Shown here piece after piece: positions 4,590 to 55,560 of a stretch of 64,000 nucleotides of DNA. The DNA is from Octopus vulgaris (taxonomy: Eukaryota): contig OX597818.1 in assembly GCA_951406725.2 (NCBI GenBank), positions 108,686,001 through 108,750,000 of the forward strand. Reading direction: 5' to 3'. The position numbers and the translations under genes are program-made. Positions within the stretch are counted from its first letter, which is position 1, and each line of letters starts with the position of its first letter. Under the pieces are notes generated by a model. It worked only from the letters and a program-made list of their open reading frames with translations, ran no database searches and was not told where the DNA came from.

Positions 4590-4747
4590 ACATTATTTAC
4601 ATTTGACGGATATTTGTCCTCATCTTGTTTGTTGTTAACACAATGTTTCGGCTGATATATCCTCCAGCCTTCATCAGGTGTCTTGGGGAAATTTTGAACC
4701 TGGGTTCTCATTCCTAAGGTATTTTTCAATGTTATTATTATTATTAT
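4590..4747 (-). mobile_element. Hammerhead-containing SINE-like element, copy 1 (3' part)
   Basis: Homologous to 25250-25400, 53460-53610 and 55385-55535. The upstream arm TATTCAGGTCACTG reappears at ~5245-5258, beyond the Dong insertion. Confidence 0.85.
4637..4682 (-). ncRNA. Minimal type I hammerhead ribozyme motif
   Basis: GACAC-CTGATGA-A-GGCTG(GAGGATATAT)CAGCC-GAAA-C-ATT-GTGTT. Stems I and II are intact; ATT instead of the consensus GTT is a CpG-type change. Confidence 0.65.
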
Positions 4748-5215
4748 CTTATGTTTGACTTTTGCTTTACATTTGTACAAGCTGGTTCCAAGTCTCACCC
4801 AGAGACCTCAAGAGACAAGTTGGAAGTTCATGTTGGTATTATGCCTAGGGTGCCATATTTTTAGTTTTGTACATAGTGTTCTGGAGAATGTTTAAAAAAC
4901 CATTAGAAAATTATGTTTGTTTTAAAACTTGAGATTACATAGTAAGTATTTTGCGTAGGATATGGGCAGTTCCCATGAGTACTATCTTTTGAATTTCTGC
5001 CATTTTGGGGTTTCCTGGTATCTGAGCTATGTAGCAATCAGCCCCTTTTGCTCTCATTCCTAGGGCACCTGTGACAACAGGTATTGTTTTAGTCTTCTGG
5101 TTCCACATTTTGCTAATTTCTATTTCAAGATCTTTATATTTGCTCAGTTTTTGGTAGGTCTTGACAGATACGTTTATATCGATTGGGACAGTCATATCAA
5201 TGAGGAGGCATGATT
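4748..5215 (-). mobile_element. R4/Dong-clade LINE 3' fragment (restriction-like endonuclease C-terminus plus 3' UTR)
   Basis: LLIDMTVPIDINVSVKTYQKLSKYKDLEIEISKMW...IPVVTGALG...IQKIVLMGTAHILRK matches the R4/Dong RLE end. Flanked on both sides by (TAA)n, the known Dong target. Confidence 0.85.
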
Positions 5216-5554
5216 TTTATTATAATTATTATTATTATAATTATTATTCAGGTCACTGGTTATTTCTATGGACGAGGTTACCATTTCCTAAAGAGGAATT
5301 GTTATGAATTGTAAGCAGTAACAACACTGTGGAATGGATGAGTAGTTTTGTTGGTTTGCAGAGTTAAGTTCAATTCTTCTCTGCAAAAACAGCAAATCAG
5401 ATCAGTTGTCCTGTCTGGCAGAAGATATTAGCCTTGTCTGCTTCATGCCACAGAAACCAGAATTGAAGCACTTGGTCAAAGGAAACATGAACTTCCACAA
5501 GAGGAAACAGTAAGGAGAAATATATGAAGCTTTTGGATTTATACTCATGACTTA

Positions 5555-19695: not shown

Positions 19696-20156
19696 TACAG
19701 TGTACATTTAAACACATAAGAGGTATCCGTCATAGGATTCCTGGCATGCTAGAAGGAACAGCCAAAATCCAAACCACTATTAGGGATAAAACTTCAAAGG
19801 GAATGAAAAATAAAAACATTTACCATCTATCTCCTGAACCATGGTTTCTGACTTTTTTTTAGCAAATAAAATAATTTCCTAGGTGAAGTCTTCATCAGCA
19901 GGTACATCTAGATTAAACATATAAGTATGAGGCAATCCAGCATGTGTCCCGTGCTTATACATTATAATTTTTCAAATCCATTTATTTGCCTAAAAAAAAG
20001 TCAGAAACCATGGTCCAGGAGATAGATGGTAAATGTTTTTATTTTTCATTCCCTTCAAGGTTTTATCCCTAATAGTAGTTTGTACTTTGGCTGTTCCTTC
20101 TAAAGTGCAAGGAATCCTATGACATCTACCTCTTATGTGTTTAAATGTACACTGTA
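19696..20156. mobile_element. Foldback element / MITE, ~175-bp arms, TA-flanked CAGTG termini
   Basis: TA-CAGTGTACATTTAAACACATAAGAGGTA ... TACCTCTTATGTGTTTAAATGTACACTG-TA. Confidence 0.8.
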
Positions 20157-24830: not shown

Positions 24831-25217
24831 TCTAAGAATGTCTCTAAGTTTCTGTCTGATGGGTTTTTCAGTTTCCTTCTTTTTCACACTGGTTTGTTTC
24901 TCTGAATCTCTTTGGTCTGAAGTCACTGATGGGAGTGTGGCTACACACACACACACACACATTGTAGGTAAGACTGTGTGGTTGCTTCCCAAGCACAGGA
25001 CAAGCTTCTTCCACCTGCCAAATTTACTCACAAGGCTTTGGTCAGCCTAGGGCTATAGCAAGAGACACTTGCGTTAGGTGCTCTTCACAGGGATTGAACA
25101 TAGAACCATCATGTGAATAGGAAGCAAGCTTTTCAATGATATAAACATGCTTGTGTGTGTGTGGCACTCATTTACATATGTATACTAGCTTAAAACTTGG
25201 TCAACTTGGAACTTATT

Positions 25218-25530
25218 CAGTTCTATATTTAAGAGATGAGGAATTATGAACATTATTTACATTTTACAGATATTTGTCCTCATCTTGTTTGTTGTTAACA
25301 CGTTTCAGCTGATATACCCTCCAGCCTTCATCAGGTGTCTTGGGGAAATTTTGAACCTGGATTCTCATTCCTAAGGTATTTTTCAATGTTGTTGTTATTA
25401 TTATTATTATTATTCAGGTCACTGCCATATACCCATGGACATATGGCATAGTGGTTAAGAGTACGGGCTACTAATCCCAAGATTCTGAGTTCGATTCAAG
25501 GCAGTGACCTGAATAATGATAATAATAAGA
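25218..25530. mobile_element. Hammerhead-containing element, copy 2; tRNA-like cassette points away from the ribozyme
   Basis: Hammerhead motif on minus 25297-25339; inverted repeats 25411-25426 / 25500-25515; A box TGGCATAGTGG and B box GAGTTCGATTC on plus. Confidence 0.85.
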
Positions 25531-25704
25531 ATGATATTAATAATTATATACCTACTGTTACTTTCACCCCATCATGAGGAATAGTGGGAGTGTCATTGAA
25601 TAGTGAGAGAGGGGCGGTCTAAGTGTGACACACTGACACACAGAAATTAGTTTCCGCATTTATCATATTAGATATGTGTGTATATAGTTGACATATATAT
25701 GAGA

Positions 25705-27307: not shown

Positions 27308-29190
27308 ACATCATCATCATTTAATGTTTACCTTCCATGTTGGCATGAGTTGGATTGTTTGACAGGATCTGGCAAGCCAGAAGACTGCACTAAGCTTACT
27401 GCCTGCTTCGGTATGGTTCCTATGGCTGGATGCCTTTCCTAATGCCAACCACTCTACAGAATGTACTGGGTACTTTTTATCTGGCCCAACAGTTAGGCCA
27501 CCAAGTAAGTTTCAAGACAAAACTCTTCAACTGAGTGGTAAGTGGTTTTGGGATTGGTGGCTTTGTACCTGGTGATGACTGGTTAGAGTATGACAGAGGG
27601 CTAGAAAAAGGAGTCCTGTGGTAGAGGAGATACACAGCTACTTCAGCTGGAGAAGAAGATGTATTGGGGTGTATGTAAGTGAAGTAGCACAGAGGATTGG
27701 ATTGGGTGAGTGAACAAGTGTGACGGATGGGTTATTAAGAAGATATGTTGTGAAGGAGTTTTATCATGGACAGACTGTGTGCAGGAGCATAGACATAAGA
27801 CATGCCTTTAGGGTCTTAATTTTACTAGGATGGGTGGGTGTTTTCAAGCCCAGCAAATTATCAATTATCTCCTGTGAGGCCCAAAATCTGGAAGTGCTTT
27901 TTCACCATTTTGTCCCATGTTTTCCTGGGCCTTCTTCTAACATGGATTCCATCCATGTTTAGCAATCGGCAGTTCTTTATGCAACAGACCTCATCCATAC
28001 ACATCTCAAGATCTTACCAGCACAGACTTCTCTCTTGCACACTACATCTGATGCCTCTTCTCTCAACACATACATGCTTTGTTGCACATGCACACTGACA
28101 TTGTACATCCAGTGGAACATGCTAGCTTCATTGCTTTCTATCCTTTGAATGTCCTCTGCATTCACTGTCTGTTTCACAACTCTGCAGCACAGATTTCCAT
28201 ACACAACATCATACAATCTGTCCTTCATTCTGAGGGAGAGTCTCTTTGTTGCAAACAACATTTGAGCGAGGCCGTTGACAGTGCAGCCAGACTGGCTCCC
28301 ATGCTGGTGGCACATAAAAACACCTTTTGAGCATGGTCATTGCCAGAACCGCTTGATTGGCCCTTGTGCCGGTGGCATGTAGAAGCACCCACTGCACTCT
28401 CGGAGTGGTTGGCATTAGGAAGGGCATCCAGCTGTAGAAACTTTGCCAGATCAGATTGGAGCCTGGTGCAGCTTTCTGACTCACCAGTCCTCAGTCAAAC
28501 TGTCCAAACCATACCTGCATGGAAAGCAGACATTAAATGATGATGATGATGATTCTTGCAACTATGCTTTCAGAAGCTTCCTCTTTCACTGCTAATTTGG
28601 TCACCTAGGTAGCAGAAACTCTATCTAAGGATCCTAATCGGAATTGGTGGAAATCTATTTCCTGTGTATTCTGAATGTTTAATGCATCTGCACATTTGCC
28701 ACGTGTAAAGACCACTTTCTCTGGTAACCTTCCTATGTTACATCTGCACCATTCATGTGTCAATAGCTTACACTGGGAACACCACAGGATGTCTACCAAC
28801 ACCTTTTATACATATGGACCAAGACCGTTTCTCTGAAGGGAGTGGCAATTTGTCTTCTTTCCAGCTTACTAGTACTTTTCCCTTTGATTACAGACCTTGC
28901 TTGCATACCTGAAATTTCTTCTCTAATTCTACTATAGACTCAGCTTACAAGGACAAGGACGTCAGTGGTGAGGAGCTCCCAAGGGCAACCAGTTTTAAAT
29001 TACCCTGCTGTGGCTCGACACCTATAATAAACAAGAACGGGCTGAGAAGTAATAGTTGATGAACCCCTACCTGCACATTAAGATTTTGCTATATACACTG
29101 CTGACTTATACCTTACAGGCAGTACCCGGGTATGTGGCTTAAGCAGCTCTTGCCAGCCATTCATCTACCCCTAGCTTCCATAGCAATTAC
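27308..29190 (-). mobile_element. Old RTE copy (RT to tail) interrupted by a plus-strand RTE 3' UTR at ~28260-28552
   Basis: GCPWELLTTD (degenerate YADD) near 28960-28990; thumb ORF 27977-28255; (CAT)n tail at 27308. Confidence 0.7.
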
Positions 29191-29537
29191 TAGTGACTCT
29201 ACTGTTGAGCCACAGATGGTTGATTAGTCAATTAATTGACTAATTAATTTATTTATCTGATCATTAATTGTGAAACTCATGGGTATAGATTTAACTGAGA
29301 TTTCTTTTCATTCAAGTGTCTTGCTCGTTTATAAGCAATGTGCAATAAGTAAGAATGCTTTTTTCATAGTTTGGGTTTTGACTGCCCTCTCTAGCATGTA
29401 AGAAGTCCACATGGAGGTCTTCTTTCTGTGTATAAATTCTTATACACTCTTATGTTATAAAAATATTTAAGCCTCCTGACTTTTATTACGCATGCTAAAC
29501 ACTGGTATAAATGAATTTTTACCCTGTATATATATAT

Positions 29538-29917
29538 ATAGGCACAAGAGTGGGTGTGTAGTAAGTAGCTTGCTTACCAACCACATGGTTCCAGGTTCAG
29601 TTCCACTGCATGGCACCTTGAGCAAGTGTCTTCTACTATAGCCTCGGGACGACCAAAGCCTTGTGAGTGGATTTGGAAGATGGAAACTGAAAGAATCCCT
29701 TTGTATATATATATATGTGTGCGTGTTTGTGTGTTTGTCCCCCCAACATCGCTTGACAACTGATGCTGTGTTTGCATCCCCGTAACTTAGCAATTCAGCA
29801 AAAGAGACTGATAGAATAAGTACTATGCTTACAAAGAATGTCCTGAGTCAATTTGCTCGACTAAATGCGGTGCTCCAGCATGGCCACAGTCAAATGACAG
29901 AAACCAGTAAAAGAGTA
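29538..29917 (+). mobile_element. SINE family A, full length
   Basis: Family-A blocks, inserted in (TA)n. Confidence 0.9.
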
Positions 29918-29931
29918 AATATATATATATC

Positions 29932-30171
29932 AGATGGCACATAAAAGGCACCATCTGATCATGGTCGATGCCAGCTCCTCTGGCCCCTGTGCCGGTGACA
30001 CATAAACAGCACCCACTACACTCTCAGAGTGGTTGGCATTAGGAAGGGTATCCAGCTGTAGAAACACTACCAGATCAGATTGGGCCCTGATGCAGCCTCC
30101 TGTCTTCCCAGACCCCAGTTGAACCATCTAACCCATGCCAGCATGGAAAACAGACGTTAAATGATGATGAT
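29932..30171 (+). mobile_element. RTE 3' UTR fragment
   Basis: Repeat units, terminal block and GATGAT tail. Confidence 0.8.
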
Positions 30172-30189
30172 ATATAGAATGTATGTATG

Positions 30190-31300
30190 TATCATCCATT
30201 GTTGGTTCCATGTTTCTCGAACTGAAATGCAGAAAGCATATTTTTTAAAAATATTTTCTCATGATGTTTTCGAAAGCTTCCTTAATTTCTGCTATGTTTT
30301 CATGATGACAGCCCTTTAAGTTTCTTTTAAGCTGAGAAAAGAGATAAAAATGTATTCAAAGAATGGATTTGAGAAATCCTACTGCTATAGGCTGCTGCTT
30401 CATTGTCCTAAAACTCCATTTAATAATTTTCCTCGTTTGTTTCTGTCAAATGCCGTTTCTGGAATTGTTAATTGCTGCTCCATAGCACTGAACAGTCATA
30501 GTGTTGCCTGCATGGCAGCAATATTCCATGACACCTTTACGATGACACATAACGAAATTAACATCATCACCTTTGTTCCAACTGACTTTGTCATTATATT
30601 GGTTTGATGGAAGCTAGTGATACCTTAACTTGCCACATCATTGTCTGTTGTCGGCCGGTTGGATTCTATTCCCATACAGCCATATCTCATCACCAGTAAC
30701 AGTTTTTGTGACAAATCTTTGAGGATCATTGTTGAAAAATGCAAATGAAATCATTGCCCAACTCAACTCCTTTTCCATGATAAACACTTGTCAAAAATGT
30801 AGAATCTCATCTCATATTGTGACTGTTTAGATATCCATAAAATGATTGTTGTTGAGCAGAAGTTTTACTAACGTTCACCTAAAATGCAAAGTTTTGATGT
30901 TTGTTCTCATTGGGTCTGCTTCAAGTAGGTTCTTCTTCATCTCCTAGCTCTCCTCAGCTGTCAAAACTGAAGGATGTCGACTTTGCTCTTTATTCTCACA
31001 GAATTTCTAATCCTCTCTCATGTTTCTGGTATTTTCGACTGGTTTACACATCCATTCTCTCTACACATCATCAAACGTTTGACTCTGAAATCTTGATATT
31101 AAATTATCAAGTCTCCCTGCTGCCATATTACAATGTTTATTTCTGCATTAGTTGGCTTTCAACTTTTCATCGATGCATTTCTGTGGAAGTAAGCCAGATA
31201 TAAATGTAATTATATAACCTTTGAGTGAATTTTTTTAAGGCTTTTTAGGTTGCCCTCAATTATCAAAAGGTCCCAAGTAGATCTGGTTTCAAAAATGCTC
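30190..31300 (-). mobile_element. mariner transposase relic
   Basis: FVTKTVTGDEIWLYG (cf. ITGDETW) at ~30672-30720, then a KVM motif. Confidence 0.6.
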
Positions 31301-31577
31301 TGCAACTAGTTACTGTCAAAGAGGAAGAATGATTAACGACCAAATACACCCACTCACGCATGGCTGATAGACTTTGTTTGCCGCTTGGTTGTTACACCAC
31401 CAGTTTGTCTCTGAACATCTTTAACAGGGTTTTATCGATTGCAGGCATTTGGGTCGGGCATATGGCTTGAGTCTACCTTCCTAATCTCCTTTCTCTACAA
31501 GTCTTGCTGGATCAATAAAGCGTCTTGAGCACTTCCCTCTTACTAGGTGATACATAAGTATGTACATATGTATCCAT

Positions 31578-31995
31578 ACATGATGGCTGCCCCCTCGTTA
31601 TCGAGTATGGCCATTGCACGAAGCTTAACTGTTATTGGTGCTGTGATCGAACATGACTTTTTAGCCCAGCTAAAGATCTACAATGTCTTGTAAAGAATTG
31701 GCAACTAAAACCTTTACCGGTAATTGCCGGCTGTAGTTGTAACTGGGCTTCATGTACCTTTGCATGTCGTTTAAGTCCTCCTGCCCGAATGACACTCTCT
31801 TCCACATGCCCGACAGATATGATTAGTATGGTGTGTAACAACACCACCAGTGGCCAGGTTGTCACTCATCTGTCTCGCTTTATGACTACGAAGATGACTC
31901 TTGAGTCCAGCTTTAATGAGGCAGGGTCTTGCATAGACATTGCATGTCAGCATCATAGGAATATCACATCCAAAATGCATTCCTTCTTCAATCAA
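31578..31995 (-). mobile_element. RTE-like LINE 3' end with three C2H2-type zinc fingers
   Basis: TCNVYARPCLIKAGLKSHLRSH; ICRACGRECHS/AGGLKRHAKVH; SCQFFTRHCRSLAGLKSHVRSQH; short UTR, then (CATA)n-type repeat. Confidence 0.65.
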
Positions 31996-34399: not shown

Positions 34400-35130
34400 T
34401 ATATGAAGTAAAAGCATCTCTAGTGTTATAAATATTATTAATATATATATATACTTAATGTATAAGCTTTGTGTATTTTCTGGTGGCTGCAATGGCATGG
34501 CAGTTTGTACAAACTCTCAACTTGTCATGTGTTAAAAGACAGACAAGACGACACACCTTCAATCCCATTTCAGAGTAATCGACACTGGAATTTTGCCATT
34601 TTTGTGGCTTATCAACACCACCCAGCCAACAGGGTCGAAGGCAAGCCACTTAGCCAGTCCCAACAACTTATATGCTCATCGCTTGTAAAATCATGAGCTG
34701 GTATGCTCAGAAATTTAACACCCAGCGATTTAAGGGTTTATATTCTCTGCCACGCCATTGCAGCCACCTGAAAATCCACAAAGCACAGACATTAAGTTTA
34801 TGTGTTGTTAATATTTACTACTCTAGATCTGATTTTACTTCATATGTAAATTCTCCCTTAGCTATGCGACTTCCAGACCTACCAGCTCATGATTTTACAA
34901 GCCATGAGCCTATAAGTTGTTGGGACTGGCTAAGTGGCTTGCCTTCGACCCTGGTGGTTGGGTGGTGTTGATAAGCCACAAAAATGGCAAAACTCCAGTG
35001 TCCATTACTCCAGTACTTTACTGAGGTATCTTTTAAAACATGACAATTTGACCTCACTGCTATCCCATTGCAGCCACCAGAAAATACACAAAGCATATAC
35101 ATTAAGTATATGTGTTAATAATATATATAT
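34400..35130. repeat. Compound inverted repeat (A B / A' / B' A')
   Basis: 34450-34703 is inverted at 34880-35110; 34400-34495 is also inverted at 34755-34845. Confidence 0.85.
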
Positions 35131-37283: not shown

Positions 37284-37685
37284 TAATTCAATACGAGTTG
37301 GTTCCAGTACTGTCCTGCATTAAGTAGATGTCTCATTATTTCTCTCAGCTACAACTTATTCAAATATTAACACTTTGATTTGTTTGTCTTGTAAGAAGCA
37401 AAGTCCTTCTGTCTGGCCTTTGTATCAGAGTGGGGAAACTGACAAACTGTTGTTAGTGTATTGAATTATTTTCTGCAATTGCTGACGAATAGCTGCAGCA
37501 AGCATTGTTCTGGCAGACCAACGGCCCATTGATAACACCTCTGAAAATGTCTAATTGAACCAACACGTCAAATGTCAAGCTTAGGAACCACACTGCACAT
37601 ACCTGCACAGTTTGGAAATGTATTTAAACGGACAGGCCAAGCATGTTACCTCTAGCTCAGTGTTTAATGTTTCTTTTCTGCTTTA

Positions 37686-39530
37686 TATGGTTGCATGGTA
37701 AGAATCTTGCTTCCCAACCACATGGTTCCAAGTTCAGTCCCACTGCATGGCACCCTGGACAAGTGTCTTCTACTATAACCTCAGACTGAGCAAAGCCTAG
37801 TGAGTGGATCAGGTAGATTGAAACTGTAAGAAACCCATTATATATTTGTGTGTCTGTGTATAGTTTTCTTGATAAATAATAGAATAAAAAGCCAACCACA
37901 TGGTTCCAAGTTCAGTCCCACTGCGTGGGACCCTGGACAAGTGTCTTCTACTATAACCTCAGACTGTGGATATAACCAGTGGATCTGGTAGATGGAAACT
38001 GAAAGAAGCCCATTATATGTTTGTGTATCTGTGTATAGTTTTCTTGATAAATAATAGAACTAAAAGCTAACCACATGGTTCCATGTTCAGTCCCACTGCG
38101 TAGCACCTTGGAAAAGTGTCTTCTAATATAACCTGAGACTGAGCAAAGCCTAGTGAGTGGATCTGGTAGATGGAAACTGAAAGAAGCCCATTATATGTGT
38201 GTGTGTGTCTGTGTATAGTTTTCTTGATAAATAATAGAATAAAAAGCCAACCACATGGTTCCAAGTTCAGTCCCACTGCGTAGCACCTTGGAAAAGTGTC
38301 TTCTAATATAACCTGAGACTGAGCAAAGCCTAGTGAGTGGATCTGGTAGATGGAAACTGAAAGAAGCCCATTATATGTTTGTGTGTCTGTGTATAGATTT
38401 CTTGATAAATAATAGAACTTAAAGCCAACCACATGGTTCCAAGTTCAGTCCCACTGCGTGGCACCTTGGACAAGTGTCTTCTAATATAACCTCAGACTGA
38501 GCAAAGCCTAGTGAGTGGATCTGGTAGATGGAAACTGAAAGAAGCCCATTATATGTTTGTGTATCTGTGTATAGATTTCTTGATAAATAATAGAACTTAA
38601 AGCCAACCACATGGTTCCCAGTTCAGTCCCACTGCATGGCACCTTGGACAAGTGTCTTCTACTATAACCTCAGACTGAGCAAAGCCTAGTGAGTGGATCT
38701 GGTAGATGGAAACTGAAAGAAGCCCATTATACGTGCGTGTATCTGTGTATAGTTTTCTTGATAAATAATAGAACTAAAAGCCAACCACATAGTTCCAAGT
38801 TCAGTACAACTGCGTGGCACCCTGGACAAGTGTCTTCTAATATAACCTCAGACTGAGCAAAGCCTAGTGAGTGGATCTGGTAGATGGAAACTGAAAGAAG
38901 CCCATTCTACGTGCGTGTGTGTGTTTGTATAGTTTTCTTGATAAATAATAGAACTAAAAGCTAACCACATGGTTCCATATTCAGTCCAACTCTGTGGCAC
39001 CATGGACAAGTGTTTTCTACTGTAACCTCAGACTGAGCAAAGCCTAGTGAGTGGAGATGGTAGATGGAAACTGAAAGAAGCCCATTATATGTGTGTGTGT
39101 GTCTGTGTATAGTTTTCTTGATAAATAATAGAACTAAAAGCCAACCACATAGTTCCAAGTTCAGTCCCACTGCATGGCACCTTGGACAAGTGTCTTCTAC
39201 TGTAACCTCAGACTGAGCAAAGCCTAGTGAGTGGATCTGGTAGATGGAAACTGAAAGAAGCCCATTATATGTGTGTGTCTGTGTATAGTTTTTTTATAAT
39301 GAACTAAAAGACGGGTGATCAAATAGGCAATGATGGCACATTTAGAGTGATCAATGCTTGACTACTAGCGTTGCTGTGTTTACATTCTCATATCTCAGCA
39401 GTTCGGCATAAGAGACCGATAGAATAAGTACCAAGCTTTAAAAAGATAAATGCTGGGATTGACTAAAAATTCAAGGCTGTGCCCCAGCATGGCCACAATC
39501 AAATGTCTAATACAAGTAAAATGGTTAAAG
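37686..39530 (+). repeat. Tandem array of 9 x ~178 bp units derived from the SINE-A 5' half, embedded in one SINE copy
   Basis: Unit starts ~37713, 37891, 38066, 38246, 38424, 38602, 38780, 38960, 39140. Degenerate SINE head only before unit 1; SINE 3' half resumes ~39355. Confidence 0.95.
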
Positions 39531-44448: not shown

Positions 44449-44880
44449 TACTTTGAGGATTGGAGCACAGATTGTTTGCCAATATAATATGACAGTCCTG
44501 GTTTAGGACAACTGTTGCTGTAATTTAGCCCCAGGAGACATCGTCTCCAACTAGCTATACGCCATGATTGGTGTCTTTATATTTTCGAACAAGAGAATCT
44601 AGCACCCCCACTCAGCTCAAAACAATATCTGTGAACTGTGATTTCTAGGTTATTCTAGGTCATCAGCACAGAACAATTATTCTGTGCTGATGAAGTGAAA
44701 TAACCTGAAAATCGCGATACACAGATATTGTTTTGAGCTGAGATGGGGTGCTAGATTCCCTTGTTCGAAAATATACGGGCAAAGACGTGTCATATAGCCA
44801 GCTGGGGCTAAATTACAGCAACATTCATCCTAAACCAGGACCACCATGTTATGTTGGCAAACAATCTGTACTCCAAAGTA
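44449..44880. repeat. ~430-bp palindrome with a hammerhead motif in each arm
   Basis: Arms pair to within a few nt of the centre (~44676); hammerhead-like motifs at 44681-44725 (+) and 44628-44672 (-). Confidence 0.9.
44681..44725 (+). ncRNA. Minimal hammerhead-like motif
   Basis: TCTGTG-CTGATGA-(13 nt)-GAAA-ATCGCGA-TA-CACAGA. Perfect 6-bp stem I and palindromic stem III region; stem II poorly paired. Confidence 0.55.
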
Positions 44881-53459: not shown

Positions 53460-53735
53460 AATTATTTACATTTGATGGATATTTGTCCTCATCTTGTTTG
53501 TTGTTAACACAACATTTTGGCTGATAAACCTTCCAGCCTTCATCACATGTCTTGGGGAAATTTCGAACCTGGGTTCTCATTCCTAAGGTATTTTTAGATG
53601 CTATTATTATTATTCAGGTCACTGCCTGGAATCAAACTCGGAATCCTGGGGTTAGTAGCCCATGCTCTTAACCACTATGCCATATGCCGACGGGCATATG
53701 GCAGTGATGTGAATAATAATAATAATAATAATAAA
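53460..53735 (-). mobile_element. Hammerhead-containing element, copy 3; tRNA-like cassette points toward the ribozyme
   Basis: Degenerate hammerhead 53506-53551; inverted repeats 53611-53626 / 53700-53715; cassette 53627-53699 on minus. Confidence 0.85.
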
Positions 53736-55108: not shown

Positions 55109-55204
55109 ATTATCATTATTGTTTTTTTCTATCAGTAATTACAAATAGAACAGGTTGAATTGCTTCTTTCCAAGGCAGCGCTCTCAGTGGCCACTGGTAG
55201 TAGT

Positions 55205-55384
55205 AAACAAAACATAATTTTCTTGTTTTCTTAAACATTCTCTAGAACAACACTATGTAAAAAACCCAAATATATGGCACCCTAGGCATAACACCAACAT
55301 GAACTTCCAACTTATTGTCTCTTGATGTCTCTGGGTGAGACTTGGAGCCAACTTGTACAAATACAAAGCAAAAGTCAAACATAA
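55205..55384 (+). mobile_element. R4/Dong 3' UTR, 5'-truncated
   Basis: Matches the reverse complement of 4748-4925. Confidence 0.8.
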
Positions 55385-55560
55385 AATAATAATAATATCT
55401 AAAAATACCTTAGAAATGAGAAACCAGGTTTGAAATTTCCCTAAGACACCTGATGAAGGGTGGAGGGTATATCAGACGAAACATTATGCTAACAACAAAC
55501 AAGATGAGGACAAATATCTGTCAAATGTAAATAATTCCTCGTCTCTTAAATATGGAACTG
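55385..55560 (+). mobile_element. Hammerhead-containing element, copy 4 (3' part)
   Basis: GACAC-CTGATGA-AGGGTGGAGGGTATATCAGAC-GAAA-CATTATGCT at 55445-55490. Confidence 0.85.

Follow-up and report, generated by a model that had tools for sequence, protein, structure and literature searches.

A tRNA-like head in two orientations beside a hammerhead-bearing body in an octopus repeat

Two copies of a short repeat of Octopus vulgaris bear the same 73-bp cassette, a tRNA-like head between inverted arms, in opposite orientations, while the hammerhead-bearing body lies on the minus strand and to the left of the cassette in both. The two copies are part of the window, i.e., the 64,000-nucleotide stretch of contig OX597818.1 (positions 108,686,001 to 108,750,000, forward strand) that was analyzed here. 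A sequence-only reading of this DNA had noticed the arrangement, and the flipped cassette is confirmed as a real observation. In our estimate, there is an even chance that the two orientations go back to a fold-back hairpin, in whose formation the head was skipped and which was opened on either strand.

Anatomy of the element and its copies

Read in the ribozyme sense, the element of ~290 bp consists of a tRNA-like head, a 16-bp arm, a (TAA)n tract, the hammerhead body, and a 3′ end. Four copies are present in the window (Table 1), all of them single and with no tandem units in the window. Their bodies span 140 to 180 bp, and the body of copy 2 is 83 to 94% identical to those of copies 1, 3, and 4. 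At the 3′ end, copies 2 and 4 reach the equivalent of position 25218, and copies 1 and 3 stop at the equivalent of 25250–25252. Copy 1 carries an arm at the same place without a head; hence, the arm belongs to the body. A check for target-site duplications in copies 1 to 3 gave matches of 5 to 6 nt, which is chance level; for insertions of Penelope-like elements (PLEs), such duplications are described as not always present (PMC3846280).

Table 1. Features of the four copies in the window
Feature	Position	Strand	Basis or remark
Copy 2, optional 3′ extension of 32 bp (PLE-type tail)	25218–25249	-	loose ends before 25218 and 25250 in reads
Copy 2, PLE pseudo-LTR-like body	25250–25391	-	similarity to copies 1, 3, and 4
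Copy 2, minimal type I hammerhead with a 3-nt deletion at the cleavage site	25297–25339	-	descriptor given in PMC4209133
Copy 2, long-side inverted arm: (TTA)n and 16-bp arm (25411–25426)	25392–25426	.	
Copy 2, 26-bp palindrome at the 5′ end of the head	25423–25448	.	self-complementarity, majority letters, joints at 25432–25440
Copy 2, tRNA-like head; A box 25444–25454, B box 25489–25498	25436–25499	+	
Copy 2, short arm: 16-bp arm and (TAA)n, then unrelated flank	25500–25548	.	
Copy 3, body without tail; hammerhead remnant 53506–53551, core mutated	53461–53601	-	
Copy 3, long-side arm: (TTA)n and 53611–53626	53602–53626	.	
Copy 3, tRNA-like head; A box 53682–53672, B box 53637–53628	53627–53690	-	
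Copy 3, 26-bp palindrome	53678–53703	.	
Copy 3, short arm and (TAA)n, then unrelated flank	53700–53734	.	
Copy 1, body without tail; best preserved hammerhead (4637–4682)	4590–4747	-	
5′-truncated non-LTR retrotransposon (C-terminus of a restriction-like endonuclease, and 3′ UTR) within the (TAA)n of copy 1	4748–5213	-	
Copy 1, (TAA)n and single arm remnant (5243–5258), without head or second arm	5214–5258	-	
Copy 4, body with tail; hammerhead 55445–55490, preceded by a LINE 3′ end	55381–55560	+	

The arms of copy 2 (25411–25426 and 25500–25515) are reverse complements without a mismatch, and those of copy 3 (53611–53626 and 53700–53715) show two mismatches adjacent to each other, as had been read from the sequence. 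The spacer between the arms measures 73 bp in either copy, and the two cassettes are reverse complements of each other with 62 of 73 positions identical and with identical junctions. The pairing of the arms runs on outward through (TTA)n/(TAA)n: in copy 2, 28 of 29 positions pair, compared with 24 of 26 positions in copy 3. Both short arms stop inside the TAA tract, beside unrelated flanks. The A box and B box claimed for the cassette are present at the spacing of a tRNA (45 nt), from which a role as Pol III promoter is predicted. This promoter-bearing head points away from the hammerhead in copy 2 and into it in copy 3. The A/B-box pattern occurs twice in the window—both times in these cassettes—compared with a mean of 0.04 in 100 shuffles, and a single further perfect inverted repeat of complex sequence (at least 16 nt, within 120 nt) exists in the window, near 44611–44742. 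Copy 2 is diverged from the majority sequence by ~5.7% (about 6%), and perfect 16-bp arms are expected at such an age with P = 0.16; hence, their perfection is not significant.

The inner hairpin that the sequence-only reading had placed within the cassette is real, but its proper form is a 26-bp palindrome, which overlaps the left arm by 4 nt. In each of the two copies, 22 of the 26 positions are self-complementary. The palindrome occupies the 5′ end of the head; in copy 2, its axis falls between positions 25435 and 25436. For copy 3, an 11-bp DNA hairpin is predicted (−12.9 kcal/mol for 53660–53703). The majority letters in sequencing reads—G at 25431 and at 25439—render the palindrome of copy 2 perfect. 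Together with the start of a protein-database entry described below (P0079), they suggest an originally perfect palindrome with two inferred central letters. The majority letter is carried by 75, 60, and 77 contigs in the three DNA runs, and the left half of the palindrome is common, with 435 RNA reads at 25431 vs 1091 at 25448.

Besides its core, the hammerhead has a helix I of 5 bp and a helix II of 6 bp, the latter preceded by an unpaired A; helix III is absent. This matches the descriptor of the minimal type I hammerhead of PLEs, for which a short helix I, a helix II of 6 to 8 bp, an unpaired base before helix II, and a palindromic 15.2–16.2 were reported (PMC4209133). Core and helix II are intact in copies 1 and 2, and the majority letters of the reads restore the G–C pair and the palindromic center. 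The ribozymes of both copies with a cassette are damaged: copy 2 has lost 3 nt at the cleavage site, and copy 3 bears core changes. An Rfam search of the window gave no match at the gathering score, with copies 3 and 1 reaching sub-threshold chance matches only. Minimum-energy folds did not recover the hammerhead either (z from −0.43 to 1.01), as is expected for such a minimal motif. Joints at 25300/25301 in the reads were considered as evidence of cleavage and set aside, as this position is the cleavage site but also the 3-nt deletion of copy 2.

At the cassette heads, no tRNA was called by ARAGORN, and the head of copy 3 had no tRNA match in Rfam. A run of four T is absent from the sense strand in three of the four copies; about half of the shuffles lack it as well and, hence, its absence is not significant. 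In an RNA run (X24), 11,204 of 12,895,792 records match the stretch 25200–25620. Both mates fall equally on both strands without piled starts or ends, so that neither a Pol III nor a cleavage signature was seen in this run. Across the same stretch, the RNA run displays 74 places with A>G or T>C changes, vs 21 to 23 in the DNA runs. One of these, T>C at 25442 inside the palindrome, amounts to about 50% in RNA and to less than 1% of the depth in DNA. Such RNA-only A>G and T>C changes may reflect A-to-I editing of the hairpin; the RNA-only changes C>A at 25477 and C>T at 25440 also suggest that one expressed locus dominates.

A restriction-like-endonuclease LINE family is found in the (TAA)n of two of the four copies (4748–5213 and about 55200–55385). 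The LINE in copy 1 has its best protein match, at 85%, with an Octopus bimaculoides protein, and the LINE end before copy 4 is 87.5% identical to the LINE end in copy 1 over 192 nt. Hence, the TAA tract of the element is a target for a second retrotransposon. We take the LINE inserted in copy 1 to be of the R4/Dong type. Dong-R4 is described as active in O. vulgaris (PMC13282606). The protein match of the LINE and the element-derived frames of O. bimaculoides described below both assign the window to Octopus.

Other repeats accompany the four copies. A tandem array of about eight units of 178 to 180 bp (37675–39450) is a SINE-derived satellite, whose units go back to a different family of dispersed repeats in the window (D3, D4, D7). 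Furthermore, three other fold-back elements—34573–35010 with arms of 131 nt (95%), 19696–20156 with arms of 177 nt (90%), and 44611–44742 with shorter ones—are probably MITEs.

Ends and junctions across the family

A sequence-word search of reads matched 24 runs, 14 of them with half or more of the words. Four of the 24—one RNA run and three DNA runs, from three organisms—were aligned to 25200–25620. The aligner masked 25381–25421 as repeat, and joints there were left out (70 in run X6), the rows of isomers and dimers among them; no contig spanned the whole stretch. The element is abundant, with 28,448 to 31,823 contigs in each of the three DNA runs, a figure that includes plain TAA matches and is not a copy number. 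Contig depth was set aside as a measure of copy number, and the high depth at 25512–25548 was recognized as plain (TAA)n.

Two 3′ ends, at 25250 and 25218 and thus 32 bp apart, are seen in all four runs, and the flanks beyond them are AT-rich and agree little with each other. These two ends correspond to the element with and without the optional PLE tail of 30 to 40 bp, which PMC11167929 connects with two start sites of reverse transcription. At the inner 3′ end (25243–25249), the copies carry one, two, or three 9-nt units.

At the opposite end of the element, 12 of the 15 best-supported joints out of 240 lead from scattered body positions (25258–25355) to 25432–25440. They represent an inverted, 5′-truncated body joined to the start of the head, at 12 different body positions, and their polarity is the one predicted by cDNA fold-back. 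Microhomology of 1 to 2 nt is found at 8 of the 12, near chance level. The 15 are the best supported of the 240 and not a random draw, and seven lie at 25440, right after a private change of copy 2; alternatively, the 12 could be deletions that end at the palindrome axis. Under a uniform null, the clustering of the joints has a probability of ~2e-12 after correction, which is descriptive only because the joint rows were selected. One joint, 25268 to 25440, reaches a depth of 1429 in run X2, vs 42 to 90 for the long pieces listed, and a depth of 612 was recorded for this joint as well. Hence, such junctions can be inherited and amplified and are not solely made anew. A strand-change joint at the palindrome is not among the best 15 of the 240, a set that excludes the rows adjoining the masked arm. 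A single joint going back in the sequence (25367 to 25266 in X6) may mark a partial tandem. Thirty RNA reads with C>A at 25422 were rejected as evidence of dimers, as each carries at least eight other differences. The sequence-only reading had named breakpoints that vary between copies as an observation that would speak against it, and in part they do vary, as the 12 body positions show. Therefore, the 73-bp loop represents one particular junction among many, with a microhomology of 4 nt, rather than a cassette that is fixed throughout the family.

Further copies were sought among spurious open reading frames in protein databases. A phmmer search with a 41-aa peptide of the body gave 69 protein matches, all of which were compared with the four copies and 33 of which were read. 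In eight of the 69, an antisense match precedes a sense match: in P0079, in P0096, and in six others. Seven of the 69 encode the body in antisense and then in sense, and of these, P0096 alone is assigned to the element family. It represents two bodies joined head to head, each with its tail and with a long arm. The six others belong, by reading, to a related hammerhead family that includes tandem units too. In P0064–P0131, this related family is observed in long contigs, with short tandem units and head-to-head junctions. P0079 starts in the frame of palindrome and A box and goes on in the hammerhead frame of copy 3; hence, it marks a third palindrome-bearing copy—known as a protein alone—with its head into the ribozyme. 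Among palindrome-bearing copies of known orientation, two are thus head-in and one is head-out. The entry itself is annotated as a dystrobrevin beta isoform of O. bimaculoides, whose first 33 residues are element-derived; exonisation or an annotation artefact is possible.

Searches for partners and for further isomers gave negative results. No RT or GIY-YIG domain was detected in the 13 of the 69 matches that were scanned, and a word search with the 41-aa peptide gave no candidate for an autonomous PLE sharing the body among the longer proteins; the supplement of PMC8557442 (Craig 2021) held no match either. An isomer-specific peptide search of spurious frames yielded 223 candidates, none of them at E up to 10. 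Pattern scans for copies gave one chance match in metagenomes, nine prokaryote records taken as chance, and none in three other scans. A search for sequence strings in main texts, and in the supplements of PMC8557442, PMC13282606, and PMC8967140, revealed no published copy.

How the head may have come to lie either way

The mechanism to which we give an even chance begins with a cDNA folding back on itself, and each of its enzymatic steps is what we infer. A Pol III RNA would start at about 25435–25437 and run through head, arm, (TAA)n, hammerhead, and tail. Judged from the PLE hallmarks of the element, a Penelope RT/GIY-YIG protein would then nick AT-rich DNA and reverse-transcribe from one of the two tail sites; the purified PLE protein of Anolis is reported to prefer and cut ATT on both strands and to start reverse transcription at two tail sites (PMC11167929). 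The 3′ end of the cDNA—the start of the head—would fold back on the cDNA and prime the second strand, often landing at scattered body positions. In copies 2 and 3, it would have snapped back on itself and copied about 13 nt, giving the palindrome. The folded head (61 nt) would then have been skipped via a 4-nt TGCC/GGCA match, with synthesis continuing into the arm. In the predicted structure of the cDNA end, the stem of the arm immediately adjoins the hairpin of the palindrome, with the head looped out. Finally, a nick within the (TTA)/(TAA) tract would open the hairpin. If it fell in the new strand, the head would point into the ribozyme, as in copy 3; if it fell in the cDNA strand, the head would point away, as in copy 2. 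Each copy would receive its orientation upon insertion and would not be a switch. The two isomers share the same fold-back junction and differ only in which arm reaches the tail—just as the opening of a hairpin on either strand gives.

Palindromes at the head-to-head junctions of PLEs have been read as self-priming (PMC3846280), and a PLE tail at either end has been attributed to resolution by the endonuclease (PMC8557442). The sequence-only reading had proposed a hairpin-primed or fold-back intermediate. This fits the data and the published biology of PLEs, except that the loop is not fixed family-wide. Several points stand against fold-back with opening on either strand: head-out is seen in only one of the three palindrome-bearing copies, amplified junctions exist in the family, the searches gave no autonomous PLE sharing the body, the RNA run lacks strand bias and piled ends, the default product of a snap-back would be a full dimer, and self-priming on an antisense template is favored over cDNA fold-back in PMC3846280.

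Suppose instead that the snapped-back end copied the whole head, producing a perfect head-to-head palindrome from which slippage between 4-nt TGCC repeats later deleted the left or the right head. The hairpin intermediate is common to this route and to the skipping of the head. Long perfect palindromes are unstable, the snapped-back 3′ end is locked in a hairpin of 11 to 13 bp whose default extension would copy the head, and a head-to-head copy of the body with both arms long does exist (P0096). We nevertheless consider this route unlikely: the same 61 nt would have been lost in both copies with only 4-nt microhomology, and—a weak point—the best 15 of 240 joints, with masked-arm rows dropped, hold no strand change at the palindrome. 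The flip might also have happened after insertion. Here the head-in form would be original, and the 73-bp loop would have been inverted by recombination between the arms of roughly 30 bp, or by template switching between them, once in a re-amplified founder or occasionally at individual loci. Hairpin micro-inversions occur elsewhere. An inversion of this kind would give identical junctions without a hotspot, the deep joint mentioned above shows that amplified junctions exist, and perfect 16-bp arms as in copy 2 would be left by template switching. Given the age of copy 2, however, this arm identity is ordinary, and the palindrome, the arms, and the variable junctions would go unexplained, so that a fold-back would still be needed; a later inversion is therefore improbable in our view.

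The two remaining explanations carry far less weight. The cassette could be a separate terminal-inverted-repeat element that inserted either way into the (TAA)n of a hammerhead element; it does have terminal inverted repeats, and the TAA tract also served as LINE target in copies 1 and 4. However, copy 1 bears a single arm at the same place without the head, no host element resumes past the short arm, the head start joins the inverted body directly at many points, and P0079 has head and hammerhead in the same sense. This very improbable reading is largely refuted. Even harder to credit is a regulated, recombinase-driven inversion of a Pol III promoter that turns the ribozyme RNA on and off, which the sequence-only reading had offered as an option. 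It finds no support beyond the geometry of a promoter between inverted repeats in two orientations: both ribozymes are damaged, the copies are dispersed and decayed, the junctions differ between members of the family, and a reading by eye of the open reading frames listed for the window revealed none that resembles a recombinase.

Going beyond the two copies, we tentatively entertain, as possible but on the doubtful side, a tRNA-headed SINE that runs on Penelope machinery in many thousands of octopus copies. Its terminal hairpin would be rebuilt at each insertion and resolved about equally often on the one strand and on the other. Of the two isomers, one would be a complete daughter, which the fold-back arm supplies with an AT-rich flank of its own upstream of the head for Pol III, and the other a promoter fired outward into host DNA. 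If so, the Pol III start would fix both the template polarity and the 5′ end, and, hence, a palindrome axis at this start would show cDNA fold-back on a sense and not an antisense template.

Meaning and comparison with known systems

The second-strand synthesis and the inverted 5′ ends of PLEs are stated to be unresolved (PMC8557442, PMC11167929), and PMC3846280 left the template polarity of PLEs open. A non-coding passenger of 290 bp with a defined 5′ start, a marked 73-bp loop, and numerous copies in the genome would make hairpin formation and the resolved strand countable, in the genome and in vitro. If the proposal holds, the element would be a short record from which a little-understood step of Penelope transposition can be read. 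Penelope would also join the autonomous partners of tRNA-headed SINEs, which bears on the large repeat fraction of octopus. For O. vulgaris, SINEs are reported to make up 11.6% of the genome—mostly unclassified among the active families—and PLEs 6.83% (PMC13282606). If the rival explanations hold, the structure is an ordinary variant of a repeat that has yet to be catalogued or recognized; the family may already be catalogued in Repbase, Dfam, or SINEBase.

The sequence-only reading knew no SINE of such an architecture and did not recognize the element as PLE-derived; the architecture is less surprising than it seemed there. PLEs are known to have head-to-head 5′ ends with palindromes and to carry their tail on either arm, so the flip and flop forms are a miniature of known behavior of the elements from which this one derives. 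Neither a tRNA-headed dependant of PLEs nor such a flip-flop was found in the literature searched, which covers few subscription papers.

Among tRNA-derived SINEs of octopus, the element shares the tRNA-like head, the short length, the high copy number, and the host genus. It differs from them in a 3′ part that is PLE-like and not LINE-like; hereby, the families were compared by citation alone. Ohshima and Okada reportedly described three tRNA-derived SINE families of octopus in 1994, and the element may be one of these. OR2 is classified as a CORE-SINE (PMC10886601, PMC4758252).

SM-alpha and Sj-alpha of Schistosoma are likewise SINE-like, apparently transcribed by Pol III, and equipped with a hammerhead (PMC6765202). 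They are tandem repeats with canonical hammerheads (PMC6765202, PMC4209133), whereas the present element is dispersed and its hammerhead minimal; tail, palindrome, and inverted arm are not mentioned for them in the available portions of these two papers. The non-LTR retrozymes of animals are also short, non-coding, and hammerhead-bearing, and they were proposed to be non-autonomous PLE derivatives (PMC7229834; bioRxiv 10.64898/2026.07.22.740005). Their monomers of 170 to 400 nt stand in tandem with a hammerhead per unit and give circular RNA, in contrast to the single copies in the window. In the accessible part of the preprint, the words “tRNA,” “promoter,” and “tail” are absent.

The termini of parvoviruses and poxviruses bear an asymmetric loop between inverted arms, which takes flip and flop forms when the hairpin is opened on alternate strands. 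This is an analogy only: the element is a chromosomal retroposed repeat without a viral gene, and its isomer would be set once per insertion.

The closest likeness is to PLEs of the Penelope/Poseidon type, such as Penelope of D. virilis, Pen2, Pen2a, and Pen3a of Adineta, and Poseidon of Anolis. With these, the element has in common the minimal type I hammerhead, the optional tail of 30 to 40 bp, and AT-rich targets. An inverted, 5′-truncated copy of variable size abutting the 5′ end is described for PLEs as well (PMC8557442, PMC3846280, PMC2377424). PLEs, too, bear palindromes where the inverted parts meet (18 and 38 bp long in Adineta), and their tail can stand on either of the two arms. Neither “flip” nor “hairpin” occurs in the available text of PMC3846280 on PLEs. 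Unlike PLEs, the element has no open reading frame and bears the tRNA-like head, a predicted Pol III promoter, in place of an upstream element. Its inverted arms are separated by a spacer of only 73 bp, which holds this promoter, and its isomers thus differ in promoter direction. On sequence grounds, the element would work like a non-autonomous PLE with the head of a SINE.
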